From the NCBI RefSeq assembly GCF_018977255.1, contig NW_024704742.1, positions 102,116,001 through 102,180,000 on the forward strand: DNA of 64,000 nt, written 5' to 3'. Below the pieces are notes generated by a model, which saw only the letters and a program-made list of their open reading frames with translations, had not been told where the DNA came from and did not search any database. The position numbers were made by a program, and so were the translations under genes. Shown here piece by piece: positions 16,385-45,260 of this stretch (its first letter is position 1; each line of letters opens with the position of its first letter). Origin of the DNA: Callorhinchus milii (taxonomy: Eukaryota).

Positions 16385-18225
16385 TGAAGGGAGCAGCTTA
16401 ACTACTCACACTCTTAAGATACAGGTGGTTAAGTGTTTGGGAAAAAATTAAAATGGGAGGAAAAGTATTCATCTATAAAAAGTGCACAGGTGAAGGACAA
16501 GCCCTGTACAAGAAATCAGAACAGCCAATTTTCCATTCTTTTGGTAAATCAACCATGAAAATCAACGCTTTATTTTTACATTACAAAATTCATTGCATTG
16601 TGAAACGGAAAGTTCTTTTCTGGGACAAAATTAAGAAAATAACACAACAATGATTATTCCTAAAGGCAACATACTATAGAATTCTTTGTACAACACACCA
16701 TCCTAATTGTCTCTCACATTTTCCCAGCAGCTCATATTCAATTATAGAAAAGCCAAATTTTCATTCACTTTTATTCCTAACTTTGATTGATTCAGAATAG
16801 TCAGCAGTCTATTTCAGGGTTGCTTTGAGCTTTTAACTAATTCCATCCAGTAAACCTGTGAAGTACTGCTTTCCCCTTTCCAGCAAGTAAGGGTAAGACA
16901 ATGGGTACTGTCACTAAATCTCTCAAGCAGTCATGTAGCCAAACCCTTATGTATGAGAAGCAGGTATTGTTTTTGGTATAATTTTCAATTGTTTTAATTG
17001 TGATTGTGAAGCAATCTGCCTCTGTCTCTGCCCAAGTGACAAATTATTCATGTATTACTTTATTGACAATTTCTTTGTCCATTTTGGCCTACTTCCCTTA
17101 TTGTTTCTCTATCTACCCTATGTTCTTTTGCTAGCCCCTTGAAGTGTTTCCTTTTTCTGCCAGACTCAATGGACTCAACATCAGCAGTGGTACAGTATTA
17201 CTTTCAGTAATCCATACAGTCAGTCCTCTGGGGAAAAATTGCAAGTTGCAATAGTTTCAAGATGTTGGCAAGCAAACTATTTGGAGTAAGGAGTAACTTC
17301 AACAAATTGATTCACTTTAGCTGCCTTGAATGAATTGTCTGAATTTAAAAAGCTTTAGTATCAAATGCTCCTCAAGGGCAAACCTCTTAAGTAGATAAAT
17401 AAGTATTCCTTATTTTACCGTGGATTTATTTTTTTACTTAATCTACGGTTTGTTCAGCTTGACTTGGCACAATGGTTACTTTATTTTAAATGTAATTTTA
17501 ATTTAAAATTGTAAACAGAAGATAAAAAAGTACATTTTAAGTTTTAAAGAAATAGAATATTTGAAAATGATATGCACAGACTGCACTGTGTGGTGGCTTT
17601 TTGTTTTGCAGAGATGTTTAGCTGATTTATTGGTTTATGCAGCTGATGGTAAAGAACAGTGTTTTTTCTTGAATGTATGATTGGTACTACTGTCAGTGTA
17701 AGCAGACAAAGCAGAGATATGCTGCTATATTAGCTGCTTGAGAAAAGTTTGCTAATTCCATTCCCTGGAGTCTTGCACGTGCTCCTATGTTCCAATGGAC
17801 TGCAAGGCTGGATGTTACCCAGTGCAAGTACATAACCCGTGGGGACACTTTGACATCTTCATGCCTATATTGATGCATTTAAATGCAATAGATAATACCA
17901 TGCTTATCTCAGGCAGGGGTCTTGATATGCTGGAAACTGAAGAACCACTCTCTGCTTGGCTAACAATGGCACAAAGAGATCCCCAATCTGAGATCCAAAA
18001 CACCCACCATAGAACTTACAAAATCAAGTCAGGGCAGTGGCCATTATTGTGGTGGTGACAGCTATTTGTATAGGCTGTGTCTAATAGAGTCTCTGCTTAG
18101 TGAGGTAAATATTCTGTGCATCCATGCATGATTTGCACACTTGAAATTATTTTGCATGCACCAAGATAGTAAAACAAGAGGACATAGGTTTAGAGCTGAA
18201 AGTGACAATTTCAGGACAGACACCA

Positions 18226-18553
18226 CAACAACAACAACAACAAGATTCCATTTATAAAGCGCCTTTCACGTCAGGAGGACGTCCCAAGGCGCTGCACAGT
18301 TGGGTCATGACCCAAGGAGGGGGGAAATGGTCAGGGTGAGGGGAGGGAAGGGAGGGAGTGAGGAGGGGGGAAATGGTCAGGATGAGGGGAGGGAAGGGAG
18401 GGAGCGAGGAGGGGGAAGAGAGTCGAGAGGGGAGCTGAAGGCTCGGTCAAAGAGAAAGGTTTTGAGACCGGCCTTGAAGGAGGAGAGGGAGGAAGCAAGG
18501 CGAAGGCACTGGGGCATAGAGTTCCAGAGCCTAGGGGCTGAGAGGCTGAAGGC
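18226..18553 (-). mobile_element. Young L2 3' fragment inserted in an old plus-strand CR1 3' end (~18170-18750)
   Basis: Nearly identical to 26717-27043; flanks rejoin as CR1-like FRTDT|RKVFFIQRVINDWN. Confidence 0.9.
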
Positions 18554-19604
18554 CAGGAAGGTTTTCTTTATTCAGAGAGTAATTAATGACTGGAACAGGA
18601 TACCAAGGAAGTGTGGTTAAAGCTAGGACACTGGACACATTTAAAACACAGCTTAATGCTTTGAATGCTGTGACAGAATGGAAGGAATGCAATAAGGATG
18701 GAATCAGATGGGCCGAAGGCCTTATTTGCCTTAATTAATCTTGTGATTGTTTGTTCTAATATGGAATCATGTTCGAAAAACTGTAAAACCTTGAGCAAGC
18801 AAGCGTTGTTGTAATATTAACTGGTAAACTTTCACAAAGAAGCTACTGGAAATAACTGACACAGTGTTATATTACAGGCCACTGCCAAAGGCATATTTCA
18901 AACTGATGTAGGGTTCAACCTCATGCACTAATCATGTTATAAAGGGGAGCCTTGATTAATGTGTGGACACCGCAAACCGCATGTTACAGACAATGTCAAT
19001 TAAATGAACAGACCTTATAACAGACCTTCAACTGTCAGTGTACCTTTCACAACATGTCCTGCATCTGCCAAAGTTAAGATGATAGCCCCTCTATCTTCAC
19101 TGGATCTAATTTACATTTCCATGTTTCAAACAGCAACTGATTGGATAGAATTATTTCCTGTCACTGTTTTTCCAAATCTCAAATGTATTATTGTGCATTC
19201 TCTGGGCCCTGAAGAGCACTAAACCATGACATTCTAGACCTCTGTAACCTTTGAACTTTCAAGTATTGTTGAAGTCACATGAATTATTCCAAGATGGAAA
19301 TTTGCTGATGTTTATGGTGTGCTCCGACTGACCCTGTTGCTGATTGTTCTTTATCAGCATGATATTGGATGAAGAAGACCCATTGGCCCATTTGATCTCA
19401 TCATTCTACCCTACTGTCTTCCAAACACAGACCAACAATAACTTGAACATATCTCTTTTAGAGATAAAAATGGAGGGGAGTGGGAAGAGGTGGCTGAGTA
19501 ATGTGATGTGATAGTTTTCACCAGTAATAATGTAATAAGATAAATATCACATGTGAGAATTGTCACATTCATGTACCCCCTCTCTCATGTGACAAAGAGA
19601 ATTG

Positions 19605-26462: not shown

Positions 26463-26716
26463 CCAGGAGAATCCAGGCCCTCGAGTACCCATCCAAGTCC
26501 CCCACCTCGAGTACCCCATCTCTCATCTTGTCCATTCCCTCACCACCAACTGTCCCCTCTGCATCGGCCTACAAAATGTCTGATCCCTTTCCAGCAAAAT
26601 GCTCACCATCTAAGATCTCATTGTCCCCAAAAACATTGACATCCTCGCCCTCATCGAAACCTGGGTCACCCCATATGACACCTTCTCCCTGACTGAGGCC
26701 ACACCACCCGGCTACA
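26463..26716 (+). mobile_element. 5' part of an older L2 (start of endonuclease), host of the full-length insertion
   Basis: Translates with stops as [46 protein letters not shown]; continues at 30881. Confidence 0.85.
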
Positions 26717-26865
26717 ACAACAACAACAACAAGATTCCATTTATAGAGCGCCTTTCACGTCAGGAGGACGTCCCAAGGCGCTGCACAGTTGGGTCACGAC
26801 CCGAGCAGGGGGGAAATGGTCAGGGTGAGGGGAGGGAAGGGAGGGAGAGAGGAGGGGGGAAATGG

Positions 26866-29800
26866 TCAGGGTGAGGGGAGGGAAGGGAGGGAGCGAGGAG
26901 GAGGAAGAGAGTCGAGAGGGGAGCTGAAGGCTCGGTCAAAGAGAAAGGTTTTGAGACCGGCCTTGAAGGAGGAAAGGGAGGAAGCAAGGCGAAGGCACTG
27001 GGGGATGGAGTTCCAGAGCCTCGGGGCTGAGAGGCTGAAGGCCCGACCACCGATAGTAGGGCGGTTGGGGCGGGGGACGTGGAGCAGACCGGAGCCAGAG
27101 GAACGGAGGGTACGGGCAGGTAGGTAGGGGGATAGTAGGTTGGAGAGGTAGGAGGGAGCAAGGCCGTGAATGGCCTTGTAGGTGAGGATGAGGATCTTGA
27201 AATCAATCCTCTGGGGGATGGGGAGCCAGTGGAGGCGAGCGAGGGTAGGAGTGATGTGGTCCCGAAGCCTGGTGCGGGACAGTACACGAGCTGCAGAGTT
27301 CTGAATGACCTGCAGCTTGTGGAGGGAGGTGGCGGGAAGGCCGGCGAGGAGAGAGTTCCCATAGTCCAGCCTTGAGGTGACAAAGGCGTGAACCAGGGTT
27401 TCAGCAGCGTGAGGGGTGAGGTAGTGCCGTAATCTGGCGATATTCCGGAGGTGATGGAAGGCGGTGCCAGTTGTGGTGCGGATGTGAGGGAGAAAGGACA
27501 GCTCAGGGTCGAACAAAACGCCGAGGTTCCTGACTGGCTTTGAGAGGTGGAGAGTGCAGCCTTGGATGCTGATGGTGTCAGCGCCTGAGGTGCGGAGGCG
27601 CTGACGTGAGCCAATCAGGAGGGCCTCGGTTTTTCGCACGTTGAGCTGAAGAAAGTTGTCTCTCGTCCAGGACTCGATGTCGGACAGGCAGGCTGTCAGG
27701 ACATCGGTGGTCGTGGAGTTGAGAGTAGAGGAGGAAAGGTAGAGTTGGGTGTCATCCGCATACATGTGGAAGTTAACCCCATGTTTGCGGATGATGTCAC
27801 CGAGGGGGAGCATATAGAGGGTGAAGAGGAGGGGACCGAGGACAGAGCCCTGAGGGACACCACATGAGACAGTACGGGGGGTGGAGGAGAAGCCATTCGT
27901 TGAGACGAAGTGAAGACGGTGGGAAAGGTAAGAGCTAAACCATTCAAGGACAGTGCCTTGAAGGTTGAGGTGGGAGGACAAGCGGTGGAGTAGGATAGCG
28001 TGGTCGACCGTATCGAATGCTGCCGATAGGTCGAGGAGGACGAGGAGACAGAGGGAGCCCTGGTCACAGATAGTCAGGATATCATTGGTGACCTTGACCA
28101 GGGCAGTTTCTGTGCTATGAGCAGCACGGAAACCTGACTGAAGGGGTTCAAAAAGAGAATGGGTGGAGAGGAAAGAGCGCAGTTGGGAGGCGACAACTCT
28201 TTCCAAGACCTTGGAGAGAAAGGGGAGGTTGGAGATGGGCCGGTAGCTTGATAGCTGCGACGCATCAAGGGAGGGTTTTTTCAGGGTGGGCGTGATGATG
28301 GCAGTTTTTAATGGAATGGGGACAGAGCCAGAGGAGAGGGACAGGTTTATGATGTCAGTGATGTGTGGGGCAAGAAAATGGAGCTGGGAGATAAGGAGTG
28401 GAGTGGGGATGGGGTCAAGGGAGCAGGTGGTTGGTTTTAGGGATAGGATGAGTTCAGTGACAGAGGGTGGGGAAACGGGTACGAAGGTGTGTAGGGGAGG
28501 ATGGGTAGGAGTCGGAGTGTGGGAGGGAAGGGGTGGGTGGTGGGTGGAAGTTGGAGGGGAAGTGACCGCGGAGCGGATTCCCTTGATCTTGGATTCAAGG
28601 AAATCCAGCATCTCCTCGCAGTGAAGGTTGGAGGAGATGACCTGCGCGGGGTGGCGGGGGGGACGGAGGAGTCGGGATGTGGTGGAAAACAGTAGCCTGG
28701 GGTTGTTCTTCGCCTCCAGGATTATCCTGGAGTAGAAGGACGACTTGGCCGAGGCTAGAGTGGAGCGGTAAATTTTGAGGAGGTCCAGCCAGATTTGTCG
28801 GTGGACCGTTAAGCCGGATTTGACAAAGGTGCGCTCAGCAGCCCGCACCTGGCATTTCAGTGAGCGGAGGTGGGTGGTGTACCAGGGGGAGGAGCGGGAG
28901 TAGGAGACAGTGCGGGAAGTGATGGGGGCAAGAGTATCGAGTGTGGAGGAGAGGATATTGTGGAGGAGGGAGAGAGGAGAAGAGGGGTCGGTGAGGGTTG
29001 AAGGCCAGAGGGAGAGGAGTTCAGAGGACTCCAAGGCATCGGTTAGGGATTGTGGGGGTAACTTCTTCCAAGGGCGGTAGAAGATGGTGGTGGGTCTGGT
29101 GGAGGTGGGGAGGGGGGTGGAGGTGGTGAAGGAGATGAAGTAGTGGTCGGAGATGGCCTTGTCGGTAATAGTGACATCCGAGACACTGAGGCCCCGGGTG
29201 ATCACCAAATCGAGTGGGTGGCCGTGACTGTGAGTGGGGGAGTTTATGTGTAGGGAAAGGTTGAGTGAGGAGAGCAGGGAAGAGAAGTCTGTGGAGATGG
29301 AGCAGGAGGGGGTGAAGTGTAGGTTAAAGTCGCCCAGGATGATGAGGCGATCAGAGGAGAGGCAAAGAGATGTGAGGAGTGTTGAAATGTCAGAGATGAA
29401 GGTGGGAGAGGTTTTAGGGGGCCGGTAGAGGAGGAGGATTTTAAGGGAGAGGAATGAGGGGTGGGAGAGGGTGAGGTGCTCGAAGGAGGGGAAAGAGCCA
29501 GAGGAGTAGGGGGATAGGGCAAGTGGTGTCCTTGAGATAAGGGCAACACCACCGCCACGGCGGTTGGGGCGGGGGATGTGGTGGGAGGTGTAGCCGGGTG
29601 GCGTGGCCTCCGTGAGGGGGAAGGTGTCGCCTGGGGTGAGCCACGTTTCTGTCAAGGCCATGATATCAACGTTCTCATCAAGGATGAGATCGTTGATGAC
29701 CAGGGCCTTGTTGCAGAGGGAGCGGACATTTTGCAGTCCGATGTGGAGGGAGCGGTTGACAGAAGGGTGTGTGGGAGGGGAGGGGGGTCCAGGTTGTGAG

Positions 29801-30291
29801 GCAGGGGTGGGGGAGATGGGGATGAGGGAGGAGAGGTTGACTCCCCGGGTCTGTGTCCGGGGTGGCTGGCGAGAGTGGTGGGGAATGGGGCAGTCGGTGT
29901 GGCTGCTGCTGGACAGCCAACGCCGAGTGCCACGGTGAGCCCGGCGGAGGATTCCCAGACTGGAACAGAGGGAGGTTGTGGGAGGGTCAAGTGGGGATAG
30001 AAGACGAGAGGGACGGAGAGAGAGGAGGAGAGAGCGGGAGAGATGGAGAGGGGGGAGGGTTTGGGGGGAGAGAGGAGGGGGAGGGAGGGAGGGGGTGAGG
30101 GGGCTCGGGTCAAAGCGGCAGCCATAGTGCGCACGCGGGGACCGGGAGCGAGCGGTCAGGTGGATGGCATTATCCCGCAGATTGGGGCATCGAACCCAAC
30201 AGGACCATAGTGGGCTCTGATGTGAGCCCTGGGGGGGGGGGGGGGGGCGCAGTTTTTTTTTTTTTTTTTTTTTTTTTTTGTGCGCGCGCAC
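26866..30291 (-). CDS. L2 ORF2-type protein: APE-like endonuclease plus reverse transcriptase (start codon uncertain)
   Basis: 1141-codon open frame; EN motifs [40 protein letters not shown] motifs [39 protein letters not shown] (27751-27762). The track start is GTG; the first in-frame ATG is at 29661. Confidence 0.92.
30231..30279. repeat. Adjacent homopolymers G17 (30231-30247) and T27 (30253-30279) in the L2 leader
   Basis: Read directly from the sequence. Confidence 0.9.
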
Positions 30292-30346
30292 TCACCTGAA
30301 AACTAATCTATGACGTCGCAGTTCCCCGCTCCGTCCCCTCCCCCTA

Positions 30347-30874
30347 GCTGCACTCGCTCCGGCGTCGAGTTTAAGTACCTGGGTCAGTAGGCCCAGGCTC
30401 CTCCCCGCGCTGTCCTGCTGCCGCTCCCCGACTGGCTGCACTCGCTCCGGCGTCGAGTTTAAGTACCTGGGTCAGTAGGCCCAGGCTCCTCCCCGCGCTG
30501 TCCTGCTGCCGCTCCCCGACTGGCTGCACTCGCTCCGGCGTCGAGTTTAAGTACCTGGGTCAGTAGGCCCAGGCTCCTCCCCGCGCTGTCCTGCTGCCGC
30601 TCCCCGACTGGCTGCACTCGCTCCGGCGTCGAGTTTAAGTACCTGGGTCAGTAGGCCCAGGCTCCTCCCCGCGCTGTCCTGCTGCCGCTCCCCGACTGGC
30701 TGCACTCGCTCCGGCGTCGAGTTTAAGTACCTGGGTCAGTAGGCCCAGGCTCCTCCCCGCGCTGTCCTGCTGCCGCTCCCCGACTGGCTGCACTCGCTCC
30801 GGCGTCGAGTTTAAGTACCTGGGTCAGTAGGCCCAGGCTCCTCCCCGCGCTGTCCTGCTGCCGCTCCCCGACTG
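30347..30874 (-). repeat. Six perfect tandem 88-bp monomers forming the L2 5' end; candidate promoter array
   Basis: Units start at 30347, 30435, 30523, 30611, 30699 and 30787; 60/88 GC and 8 CpG per unit; no differences seen between copies. Confidence 0.95.
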
Positions 30875-30880
30875 TATCCA

Positions 30881-33873
30881 GGCTACAGCTTCTACCACAC
30901 CCCACATCCTAACTGCCATGATGGCAGTATGGCTCCTATCTCCCGGTCCCAGCTCAACCTGTCCCCTTACTCCTGTGGTACCCTCCCTTCCTTTGAGCAC
31001 CTTACACTCTACAATCCCTCCAATCTTTTCCTCAAAATCTTCCTTGTTTATCATTTCCCCAAATCCTCTCCCATGGTCCTCTCGATCATCTCCACTCTCC
31101 TATCTTCCCTCTTCCTCTGCTCCGAACGCCTCCATCACTGCAGTCTATGTCCTCTCCTGCACCAGGCTCCACAGCCCTATCACCCCATTCTCACCCGACT
31201 CCACTGACTTCCCATCACACAGAGGATACAGTTCAAGATCTTGATCGTCACTTTCAAAGCCCTTCATGGCCTTGCTCCCCCCTACCTCTGTAACCTCCTA
31301 AACCCTACTAACCTGCCCGCTGCCTTCGCTCAGCAGGCTCCGGCCTGCTTCACGTCCCCTGCCTTGCCCACCCCACCATTGGCGGCCTCTCACTGAAACC
31401 TGTAGCACCCCAGGTGACACCTTACCCCTCACTGAGACCACACCACCCAGCTGTACCTCCCACCATACCCACATCCCAACCATCATGGCAGTGTTGTGGC
31501 CCTCATCTCCACGGCCACCCACTCAACCTGGTGATTACCTGGGACTTCAGTGTCTCGGATATCAGAGTGACCGACAAAGCCATCCCTGATCACCATTTAA
31601 CCCCCTTAACTCCTCAATCCCTTTCCCCACCACCTCAAATCCACCTTCATCTCCTACCGCCCTTGGAAAAAATCTCCCCACAGTCGCTTTCTGCTGCCCT
31701 GGAGTCATCTGAACTATTCCCCACCTGGCCTTCCACCCACACTGATTTATCCTCCTCACTCACTCTCCTACACAAATCCCTCTCCACCACTCTTGATGCC
31801 CTTGCCCTCCTCACCTTCTGAACTGCCTCCTACTCATGAACCTCATCCTGGTACACCAGCCACTTCCACTCCCTTAAAGGTCAGATGTAGACTGCTGAAC
31901 GCACCTGGCTCAAGTCTGATCTAATGGTCCACCAGCAGATCTGGCTGGACCACATAAAAATGTACTGCTCCACCCTCACCTCTGCCAAATTGTTCTTCTG
32001 CTCCAAGATAATCTTGGAGGTGAAGGACAACTCCAGGCTCCTATTCTCCATCAGCAACCAACTCCTCTGTCCATCCTTCAATCACTTGACCATCTTCTCC
32101 TCAAACTCAGACTGTGAAGAGATGCTAGATTTCCTCGAGTCCAAAATTGAGGGGATCCATTTAGGTGCCTCCACCCTCCCAACCCCCACTCCCTCCCCAT
32201 CACCCCACCACACTCCCGCTGTTACCTATCCCTCCCTCCACATCCTCAAACCTGTCTCCCCTTCCTCTCTCATCACCACCATATCCAGCAGGAACACACC
32301 ACCTGCTGCCTTGACCCCATTCCCACCCCTCTCCTTACCTTCCAGCTCCACATCTTCGCCCCTTTATTCACTGACACCATCAATCTCTCCCTATCATCTG
32401 GCACCATTCCAGTCTCCCTAAAAACAGCTATAATCACCCCCATCCTGAAAAAACCTTCCCTGGACCCATCCCTGCTCTCTAACTACCGGCCCATCTCCAA
32501 CTTCCCTTTTCTTTCCAAGGTCCTTGAAAGAGTTGTTACTTCCCAGCTTAGCTCTTTCCTCTCCTACCATTCCCTTCATGAGCCATTCCAAACAGGTTTT
32601 GTGCTGCTCACAGCACAGAAAATGCTCTGGTCAGGTCATAAACGACATCCTGTCCATCTGTGACCAGGGTTCCCTCTGCCTTCTCATCCTCCTCAACCTC
32701 TCTGCTACCTTCAATACTGTGGACCATTCCATCCTCCTCCACCGCCTCTCCTCTCATTTAAACCTTCAAGGTTCTTTCCTTGAATGGTTCAAGACTGATC
32801 TCTCACACCATCTAATTTGTCTCCGCCAACAGTTTCTCTTCCAGCCCCTGCACAGTCATGTGCAGTGTTCCTCAGGGCTCTGTCCTTGGTCCCTTCCTCT
32901 TCAACCTCTACATGCTCCCCCTTGGTGACATCATGCGCAGACATGGGTTCAACTTCCACATATATGTGGATGACACCCAATTCTATCTCTTTGCCTCCAC
33001 TCTCGATTCCAGGACAACTGATGTCCTGACAAACTGTCTTTCAGACATCGTCCTGGATGAGAGCCAACCTTCTACAACTGAATGACACTGAATGCCTCCG
33101 CACCTCAGGCACTGACAGCATGGATGCACCGATACACACTCCACCTCACCAAACCATTCAGGAACCTGGGCTTCTTGTTCAACCCTTAACTGTCCTTTCT
33201 CCCCCATGTCCATGCCATGACCCGCTCTGCCTCCCCCCACCTCCACAACATTGCCCGACTCCTCCACTGCCACACCCCTCAGACTGCCGAAACCCTCATA
33301 TGCGCATTCGTCACCTCAAGGCTCATCTACAGAAACTCCCTGCTTGTCGGCCTCCTCAACTCTTCCCTCCACAAGCTGCAGATCATCCATATCTCATGTC
33401 CTCTCCTACACCAGGCTCCATGAACCCATCACCTCCACCCTCGCTCAACTCCATTGGCTCCCCATCCCCCAGAGGATAAAATTTCAAAATCCTCGTCCTC
33501 ACTTTCAACGCCCTCCACAGCCTTGTCCCCTCCTACATCTCTGACCTGCTGACCCCCTATCAACCTGTCTACTTCCTCCATTCAGCAGGTTCCAGCCTTC
33601 CCCGTGTCTCCCCTTGACCCGCCCTACCATCGGCAGGCAAGCTTTCAGCCTCTCTGCCCCCATCCCACAATCCCTTCGCCTTGCTCCCTCCCTTGCCTCC
33701 TTCAAGGCACAACTCAAGACCTCTCTACCTCCGCCCTCCTACCTCTCTGCCCTCCCTCATCCCAACCCTGCCCCCCACCCTCCCCACCCACTCTCGGTCC
33801 TTGTGTCCAACTGTTCAGTGCCTTGGGATGTCCTCCCGATGTGAAAGGCGCTTTACAAATGTAATTTTGTTGT
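30881..33873 (+). mobile_element. Remainder of the older L2 host, decayed and rearranged
   Basis: Resumes GYSFYH...[17 protein letters not shown]; later [36 protein letters not shown]; tail ttgttgttg at ~33867. Confidence 0.9.
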
Positions 33874-34102
33874 TGAAAGGCAGTTGGGAGTCAAACAAGA
33901 GACTGAGGTTCCACACTGTCTCTGCAAGGTGGATTGTACATCTATATAGCTCAATCATGCCAGCACCTGAGGTGAGCAGGGCTGACGGGAGCCAAGCAGT
34001 GGGGGTCAGTCTTGTTTACGTTTAACTGCAGAAAGTTAGAGCACATAAAGGACTTAATATTTGGGCTGAATGGCCAGTTTCCATGCAGTATCACTCTATG
34101 TA

Positions 34103-44700: not shown

Positions 44701-44767
44701 GTTTGTTGCGGGAGAGGACACGGGCTGCAGAGTTCTGGATTATCTGCAGCCTGTGGAGGGAGGAGTT

Positions 44768-45260
44768 GATTTCAAGATCCTCATCCTCACCTACAAGGCC
44801 ATTCACGGCCTTGCTCCCTCCTACCTCTCCAACCTACTATCCCCCTACCTACCTGCCCGTACCCTCCATTCCTCTGGCTCCGGTCTGCTCCACATCCCCC
44901 GCCCCAACCGCCCTACCATCGGTGGTCGGGCCTTGAGCCTCTCAGCCCCCAGGCTCTGGAACTCCATCCCCCAGTGCCTTCGCCTTGCTTCCTCCCTTTC
45001 CTCCTTCAAGGCCGGTCTCAAAACCTTTCTCTTTGACCGTGCCTTCAGCTCCCCTCTCGACTCTCTTCCCCTCCTCGCTCCCTCCCTTCCCTCCCTCACC
45101 CTGACCATTTCCCCCTCCTCTCTCCCTCCCTTCCCTCCCCTCACCCTGACCATTTCCCCCCTGCTCGGGTCATGACCCAACTGTGCAGCGCCTTGGGACG
45201 TCCTCCTGACGTGAAAGGCGCTTTACAAATGGAATCTTGTTGTTGTTGTTGTTGTTGTTG
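44768..45260 (+). mobile_element. Young L2 3' fragment
   Basis: Near-identical to the 3' ~490 bp of the full-length element ([24 protein letters not shown]...), with (TTG)n tail. Confidence 0.93.

Follow-up and report, generated by a model that had tools for sequence, protein, structure and literature searches.

The window analyzed here, a 64,000-nt stretch of the genome of Callorhinchus milii, carries on its minus strand a young full-length endonuclease-reverse transcriptase (EN-RT) LINE with L2 features, which is inserted within an older L2 on the plus strand (Table 1). The 5' end of the element is a tandem array in which TRF finds a period of 88, 6.0 copies and 100% match over the whole interval; the six units are letter-for-letter identical, as the original prediction from this sequence had described, and each is 68% G+C with 8 CpG (observed/expected 0.80). 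An AT-rich patch had also been noted 31 nt before the next unit, and the TATA-like TACTTAAA lies there at all six sites; every internal junction has GC before and CAGT after the boundary, as the first one does. The further claim that the outer end of the element falls on a unit boundary needs qualification: the array is a whole number of units, but six extra bases separate it from the target-site duplication. Such 5' extra nucleotides are described as common in L2 insertions (PMC4245944).

Table 1. Array-bearing L2 element and its surroundings, in window coordinates.
Feature	Position	Strand	Remarks
Older L2 (69-78% alike), host of insertion	30878..33875	+	5' piece at 26547-26716
7-bp target-site duplication, 5' copy	30881..30887	-	second copy 26710-26716
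Six extra bases between target site and array	30875..30880	-	5' extra nucleotides
Six-monomer 88-bp array	30347..30874	-	unit starts (C, then A) 30874, 30786, 30698, 30610, 30522, 30434
TATA-like TACTTAAA, outermost unit	30810..30817	-	-31 from next C, -32 from next A
TATA-like TACTTAAA, other units	30722-30729, 30634-30641, 30546-30553, 30458-30465, 30370-30377	-	
First internal junction GCCAGT, initiator-like	30783..30788	-	probable dual start at C and A, from 5' ends of 93 copies
Unique leader	30303..30346	-	hypervariable G-rich linker, then CRE-like GACGTCA 30311-30317
Intron-like stretch (GT donor, A run, C run, AG)	30229..30295	-	putative
Single ORF region, APE endonuclease + reverse transcriptase	26866..30125	-	likely start ATG 30125
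3' UTR + (TTG)n tail	26713..26865	-	

The window holds two more young, 5'-truncated copies of the family (97% alike; 18225-18554 on the minus strand and 44760-45255 on the plus strand), and older L2 fragments are numerous in its other parts. A 6-bp inverted repeat with an 8-base loop occupies positions 37-56 of each unit (e.g., 30818-30837, minus strand) and could be the site of a dimeric factor or an RNA hairpin; its loop differs between the two subfamilies considered below, and several of the older changes in its arms would still permit G-U pairs.

The domains of the ORF were assigned by profile match (PF03372, E 1.8e-15; PF00078, E 2e-36). Of 20 full-length copies, 12 have its start ATG in the reading frame of the endonuclease, and in five of these 12 the frame runs on unbroken for at least 1,086 residues; in the window copy this ATG is one base out of the EN-RT frame, a slip in the C-rich stretch before the endonuclease that reflects either a mutation or an assembly error. 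Most full-length copies also have a 12-codon upstream frame ahead of the main ATG (window region 30208, minus strand). The tail is (TTG)n, not poly(A), in all 20 full-length copies. Clear target-site duplications of 6-8 bp are found in a minority of copies (e.g., L035, L037, L047, and L048); most candidates are 4-5 nt long and could be chance, the automated search being unreliable below 6 nt. The L2 label is given by the tail, the single ORF with APE and RT, the missing ORF1 and the C-terminal motifs of the ORF product, which we take to be L2-type, rather than by RT phylogeny.

Between array and ORF lie the unique leader and an intron-like stretch. The linker (30325-30346 in the window; loci L031-L119) varies greatly in both length and sequence, in a family that is otherwise 97-99% alike; among 100 copies its first bases are TAG in 61, CCC in 22, TCG in 13, and other in 4. 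Many copies have GGGGCGG in the linker, which, like GACGTCA behind it, is a putative factor site named here by motif (GC-box-like and CRE-like, respectively), and the G-rich linker as a whole looks like a decayed monomer head. The intron-like stretch has its GT donor in 99 of 100 copies (GTGAGT 79, GTACGT 14, others 6) and its AG acceptor in 80 of 92 readable copies; the older copies L132 and L134 have no GT at the donor place. A genome search with the splice-junction pattern gave no match to a spliced copy.

The 991-Mb genome contains 200 sites of a 22-base leader motif and 528 of a monomer 20-mer, with no control hits, so about 200 copies bear this L2 5' UTR; the first 100 of the 200 leader sites were examined. 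The array is tied to the L2 at other loci as well, which the original prediction had made a point on which it could fail: all 20 loci fetched in full (window copy included) have a complete body with 96.9-99.4% identity to the window copy, and all seven monomer sites that lack an exact leader match still run into the leader. Rounded unit counts in the 100 copies are half a unit or less in 5, one in 57, two in 15, and at least three in 23; only one copy is unit-less. Array length varies between 0 and 24 units, and the 24-unit array, the longest to be seen in full, stands at a locus beyond the 100. Copies of the CCC-linker class have at most two units (22 sampled; four exact genome-wide hits with an internal junction), so that a source with at least three units is not seen for this class in the assembly. 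When 37 copies are aligned over 1,450 bases of the body, 22 variable columns are shared, which are too few and too tangled to trace one-unit copies as sources.

Some insertions are present more than once. The same flank occurs on three contigs (L039, L005, and L010), and other repeated insertions are L040/L107 and L127/L128; the flanks are 100% identical, so that either a segment was duplicated recently in the genome or the assembly has duplicated it. Some arrays are affected by assembly errors (L107; also L039, L005, and L010, which share one flank and differ in linker), and single unit counts are therefore uncertain.

The position at which copies begin was scored in 93 independent copies, seven of the 100 rows being left out (three duplicates, the window copy, one copy beside an assembly gap, the unit-less copy, and a copy that runs off the edge of its locus). 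The 5' ends cluster at the junction: counted from the unit start, 66 of 93 lie at -2 to +2 and 78 at -2 to +6, compared to about 5 and about 10 copies expected from even scatter over 88 positions (5/88 and 9/88). A table of 5' endpoints had been proposed as a check, and it agrees with the predicted starts at junctions. The first base is the C of the junction in 22 copies (and in 9 more that have extra matching bases upstream, mostly within chance), the A in 23, and the G behind it in 12. Roughly half of the starts at the junction fall on the C, which immediately precedes the initiator A. The junction GCCAGT fits the vertebrate initiator BBCABW, as had been pointed out.

The base before an A-start is G in 18 of 23 copies (background 0.27; p 5e-7), whereas a count by eye finds it before just one of the 12 internal truncations that were eligible (Fisher p 1e-4 vs. 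A-starts). Starts with G and A occur in different linker classes and with 1 to 11 units, so the G has been added repeatedly and was not inherited from one source. At C-starts the excess is small (G before 11 of 22, three of the 11 being jump pieces of the kind described below). An untemplated G of this type has been read as a cap mark, a sign of a capped template (PMC6425141), and a C start directly upstream of a YR start is given for 18.1% of zebrafish dual-initiation promoters (PMC6954239); the C-then-A dual start matches the zebrafish pattern and thereby supports a Pol II start. The junction is thus very probably a capped start site, and Pol II would initiate there, judging from the clustered ends and the extra G. 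Internal truncations recur at some phases: 28 three times (L013, L088, and L096), 58-59 three times (L045, L058, and L062), and 48 twice (L063 and L115); these are possible minor starts or RT stops.

The unit boundary of the array lies in phase with the start. In L113, L123, and L132 (in the last for 13 bases) the inner boundary still resembles the start of a unit, and the array is best explained by duplication of the 88 nt at the 5' end, which would be the first 88 transcribed bases. Start and boundary are then in phase because the array duplicates these bases, whatever the promoter does. The whole number of units, which had been noted in the original prediction, is real, but it is better explained by this duplication and by itself is not evidence for such a promoter.

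There are traces of more than one kind of change in array length. One insertion is present twice, 113 kb apart, with 2 units in one copy and 14 in the other and flanks that are 98.5% alike over 601 bp, which, if the assembly is correct here, points to a change of length that followed insertion. Variant blocks are repeated in some long arrays (L016, L028, and L063), and many arrays show no variation at all between their units. Directly ahead of the 5' end, 6 of 97 copies have a piece of at least 8 nt from the first 48 bases of the unit, compared to 0 of 97 controls (p 0.014), and several of these pieces are joined via a shared CAG or AG; such copied monomer pieces fit re-priming of the RT on its own template at the 5' end. 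We infer that whole units would be added if the RT jumped in this way to an internal junction.

A second view of the unit comes from an older subfamily, whose leader is about 78% alike. The 39 best further older matches begin at query positions 11-22, the unit start being at 14, with the qualification that ranking by score favors complete units. Fifteen older copies were read at base level (L132 and 14 of the 39 further loci). Their box is TATTTAAG in 12, TATTTAAA in one, TACTTAAG in one, and TATTAAAG in one, which agrees with the earlier guess that the AT-rich patch is related to TATTTAAA. In the 14 listed copies the older box stands 31 nt before the next boundary and the 23-nt spacer is constant in length. 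The older junction, CCACA, has two different bases and still fits BBCABW, and both of the older A-starts have the extra G.

The TATA box consensus is TATAWAWR, and its best match in the unit is the box site in both subfamilies, with two mismatches in the young unit and one in the old; shuffled units place an equal match at -34 to -28 with p 0.016 (young) and 0.0007 (old). The youngest subfamily thus has the poorer box (C at position 3). Among the older copies the variable cells number 29/345 in the spacer, 3/120 in the box, and 11/480 at positions 16-47, counts that are not independent, since the copies share ancestry, and in which CpG decay inflates the variation of the spacer. Fixed differences between the subfamilies number 2/8 in the box, 4/23 in the spacer, and none at positions 16-47; this block lies downstream of the start and equals the box in conservation. 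The upstream TATA-like box probably contributes to initiation at the next junction, in view of its match and spacing. By itself it does not suffice: in 61 of 100 copies a TA (YR) step follows the innermost box at the right distance, yet starts there number 1/100, so the innermost TATA yields almost no unit-less copies.

The explanation that we favor, with modest confidence, is that the 88-bp unit repeats a Pol II core promoter which extends across the unit's own junction, and that the arrays lose units and regrow. The upstream unit would supply the TATA-like box at -31/-32, and the downstream unit would supply the initiator and a conserved block at +17 to +47. Transcription would start from C or A, in most cases at the junction closest to the unique leader, and the capped RNA, reverse transcribed to its end, would give daughters with a whole number of units, usually fewer than in the source. 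Arrays would be rebuilt by DNA length change after insertion, through unequal exchange or slippage, and probably also by an RT jump from the RNA 5' end back to an internal junction. A composite promoter that needs both sides of the junction fits the box, the 16-47 block, the almost unused innermost TATA and the CCC-linker class together. The original prediction, in which each monomer acts as an upstream Pol II promoter for the next, is partly supported: the junction ends, the link of the array to this L2, the extra G and the older box speak for it, and the near-absence of unit-less copies speaks against the innermost TATA being enough by itself. The loss of a unit in every round is still a prediction.

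A promoter that is wholly internal is possible, though less likely. In each unit the initiator and the +17 to +47 block, helped by the GC-box- and CRE-like leader, would fire at the unit's own first bases, and extra units would only add strength; the box would be incidental or secondary, one-unit copies would be self-sufficient, and the array would come from duplication of the first 88 nt. Most LINEs are described as using internal promoters (PMC2615633), and several features of this family go along with one: the 57 one-unit copies vs. one unit-less copy, the block unchanged between subfamilies, the missing source of at least three units for the CCC-linker class and the inner junctions that are still unit-start-like at the three loci given above. 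A TATA-like match at the canonical distance is, however, unlikely by chance. About half of the starts keep the C before the A, which should have eroded if one-unit copies beginning with G and A had been the sources, and no two independent insertions share a 5' flank (duplicated loci alone match), in contrast to what occasional upstream starts from one-unit sources would produce.

That the 5' end is set after transcription, by RNA self-cleavage or by a stop of the reverse transcriptase at the junction, is very unlikely. Ribozymes are found at the 5' ends of R2 or RTE elements, and such an end would also be sharp and fixed in phase; the unit, with its 6-bp inverted repeat, nevertheless folds no better than shuffles (z 0.31), its five Rfam matches are all far below the gathering scores, and the ends are spread over C, A, and G, with a G at A-starts that fits a cap, a feature missing from cleaved ends; a ribozyme variant of a kind new to Rfam is a slight possibility. 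Least likely of all is that only the one-unit start has meaning and that longer arrays expanded neutrally, as minisatellites, once the element had inserted, with some distortion by the assembly: duplicates of one insertion do differ (2 vs. 14 units; 1 vs. 2 in L040 vs. L107) and many arrays are perfectly homogeneous, but truncations in upstream units (e.g., 1.2, 1.5, 1.6, 1.7, 4.5, and 5.7 units) fit multi-unit RNA templates, and copies with several units likewise have their ends at the junction, where some of them (L002, L009, L049, L055, and L106) show the extra G.

With a promoter that straddles the junction, one-unit copies may be dead ends, although this is somewhat doubtful. A stronger form can be put forward only tentatively: this L2 would have lost its self-contained internal promoter, so that a core exists only across a junction and the one-unit copies, 57 of 100, are silent; at least one unit would be lost per generation, the innermost initiator would have decayed, and the family would persist only through a minority of loci that regrow arrays, partly by in-register RT jumps from the capped end to an internal junction. 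The clustered ends, the extra G and the conserved spacing are observed, whereas we infer Pol II initiation, the role of the TATA-like box and the loss of units. If the stronger form were true, the array would amount to a small LTR-like device that renews itself within a non-LTR element and that arose separately from mouse L1.

The closest known counterpart is mouse L1Md (A, Tf, and Gf), which also has CpG-rich tandem 5' monomers in variable number with a unique tether behind them and 5' ends that cluster at one phase on a Py/Pu initiator. Mouse L1 daughters are reported to have 0.6-1.8 fewer monomers than their donors (PMC10620060; a further source on the monomer cycle is PMC9022269); the mechanism of regrowth is described as unclear, with second-strand priming and unequal crossing-over as the two models (PMC6454616), and duplications of 70-100 bp are reported in other mammalian L1 (PMC5381506). 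The mouse element differs in belonging to the L1 clade, with ORF1 and poly(A), whereas the element here has a single ORF, no ORF1 and a TTG tail; its unit is about 200 bp instead of 88 bp, and its starts fall in a zone of 20-30 bp instead of on two or three bases in phase with the inner boundary of the array. The YY1 core GCCAT is absent from the 88-bp unit (which has no CCAT or ATGG), the place of the mouse-type YY1 site being taken by the TATA-like box at -31. By analogy, the array may work like the mouse L1 monomer promoter without being a member of the mouse L1 family.

Other systems resemble the array in part. The A-module of Dictyostelium TRE5-A is tandemly repeated; TRE5-A is L1-like, targeted to tRNA genes and has ORF1, unlike the L2 element here. 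This module is described as a 200-bp 5' module with promoter activity (PMC3159450). In HeT-A/TAHRE of Drosophila the promoter of an upstream unit is reported to drive the downstream unit (PMC2615633); there the unit is the whole element, in a telomeric array and with the promoter in the 3' UTR, whereas here it is an 88-bp module inside each dispersed copy, and the L2 copies are dispersed single insertions with unrelated flanks. For some ORF1-less LINEs of the CR1 group, the figure legend of a 2026 survey gives 1-5 units of 100-500 bp near the 5' UTR; the survey states that chondrichthyan L2s lack ORF1, and its main text does not discuss a function of the 5' repeats, the words promoter, tandem and monomer being absent from it (PMC13343379). 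These repeats are alike in standing near the 5' UTR of single-ORF LINEs, and they differ, as far as the main text of the survey goes, from the 88-bp unit, the up to 24 units and the start-site evidence described here. A literature search of sources beyond Repbase, Dfam, subscription journals and supplements found no description of a monomer promoter or of a base-precise TATA-Inr junction in an L2. The suggestion that the geometry is new for an L2 may hold for the TATA-Inr junction, but not for the cycle of monomers, which mouse L1 already displays, nor for 5' repeats as such, which have been noted in the CR1 group.

The new part, compared with mouse L1, is the sharper start and the TATA-like geometry. 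How LINEs with monomer promoters avoid exhausting their monomers is a question that dates from the work on mouse L1, and this family brings about 200 young copies, a short unit, base-precise G-marked starts, two subfamilies with different boxes and visible jump products, so that the loss and regrowth of units can be counted and put to the test with small constructs. The array also suggests a function for the unexplained 5' repeats of ORF1-less CR1-group elements across vertebrates, and it suggests that the monomer solution arose more than once.
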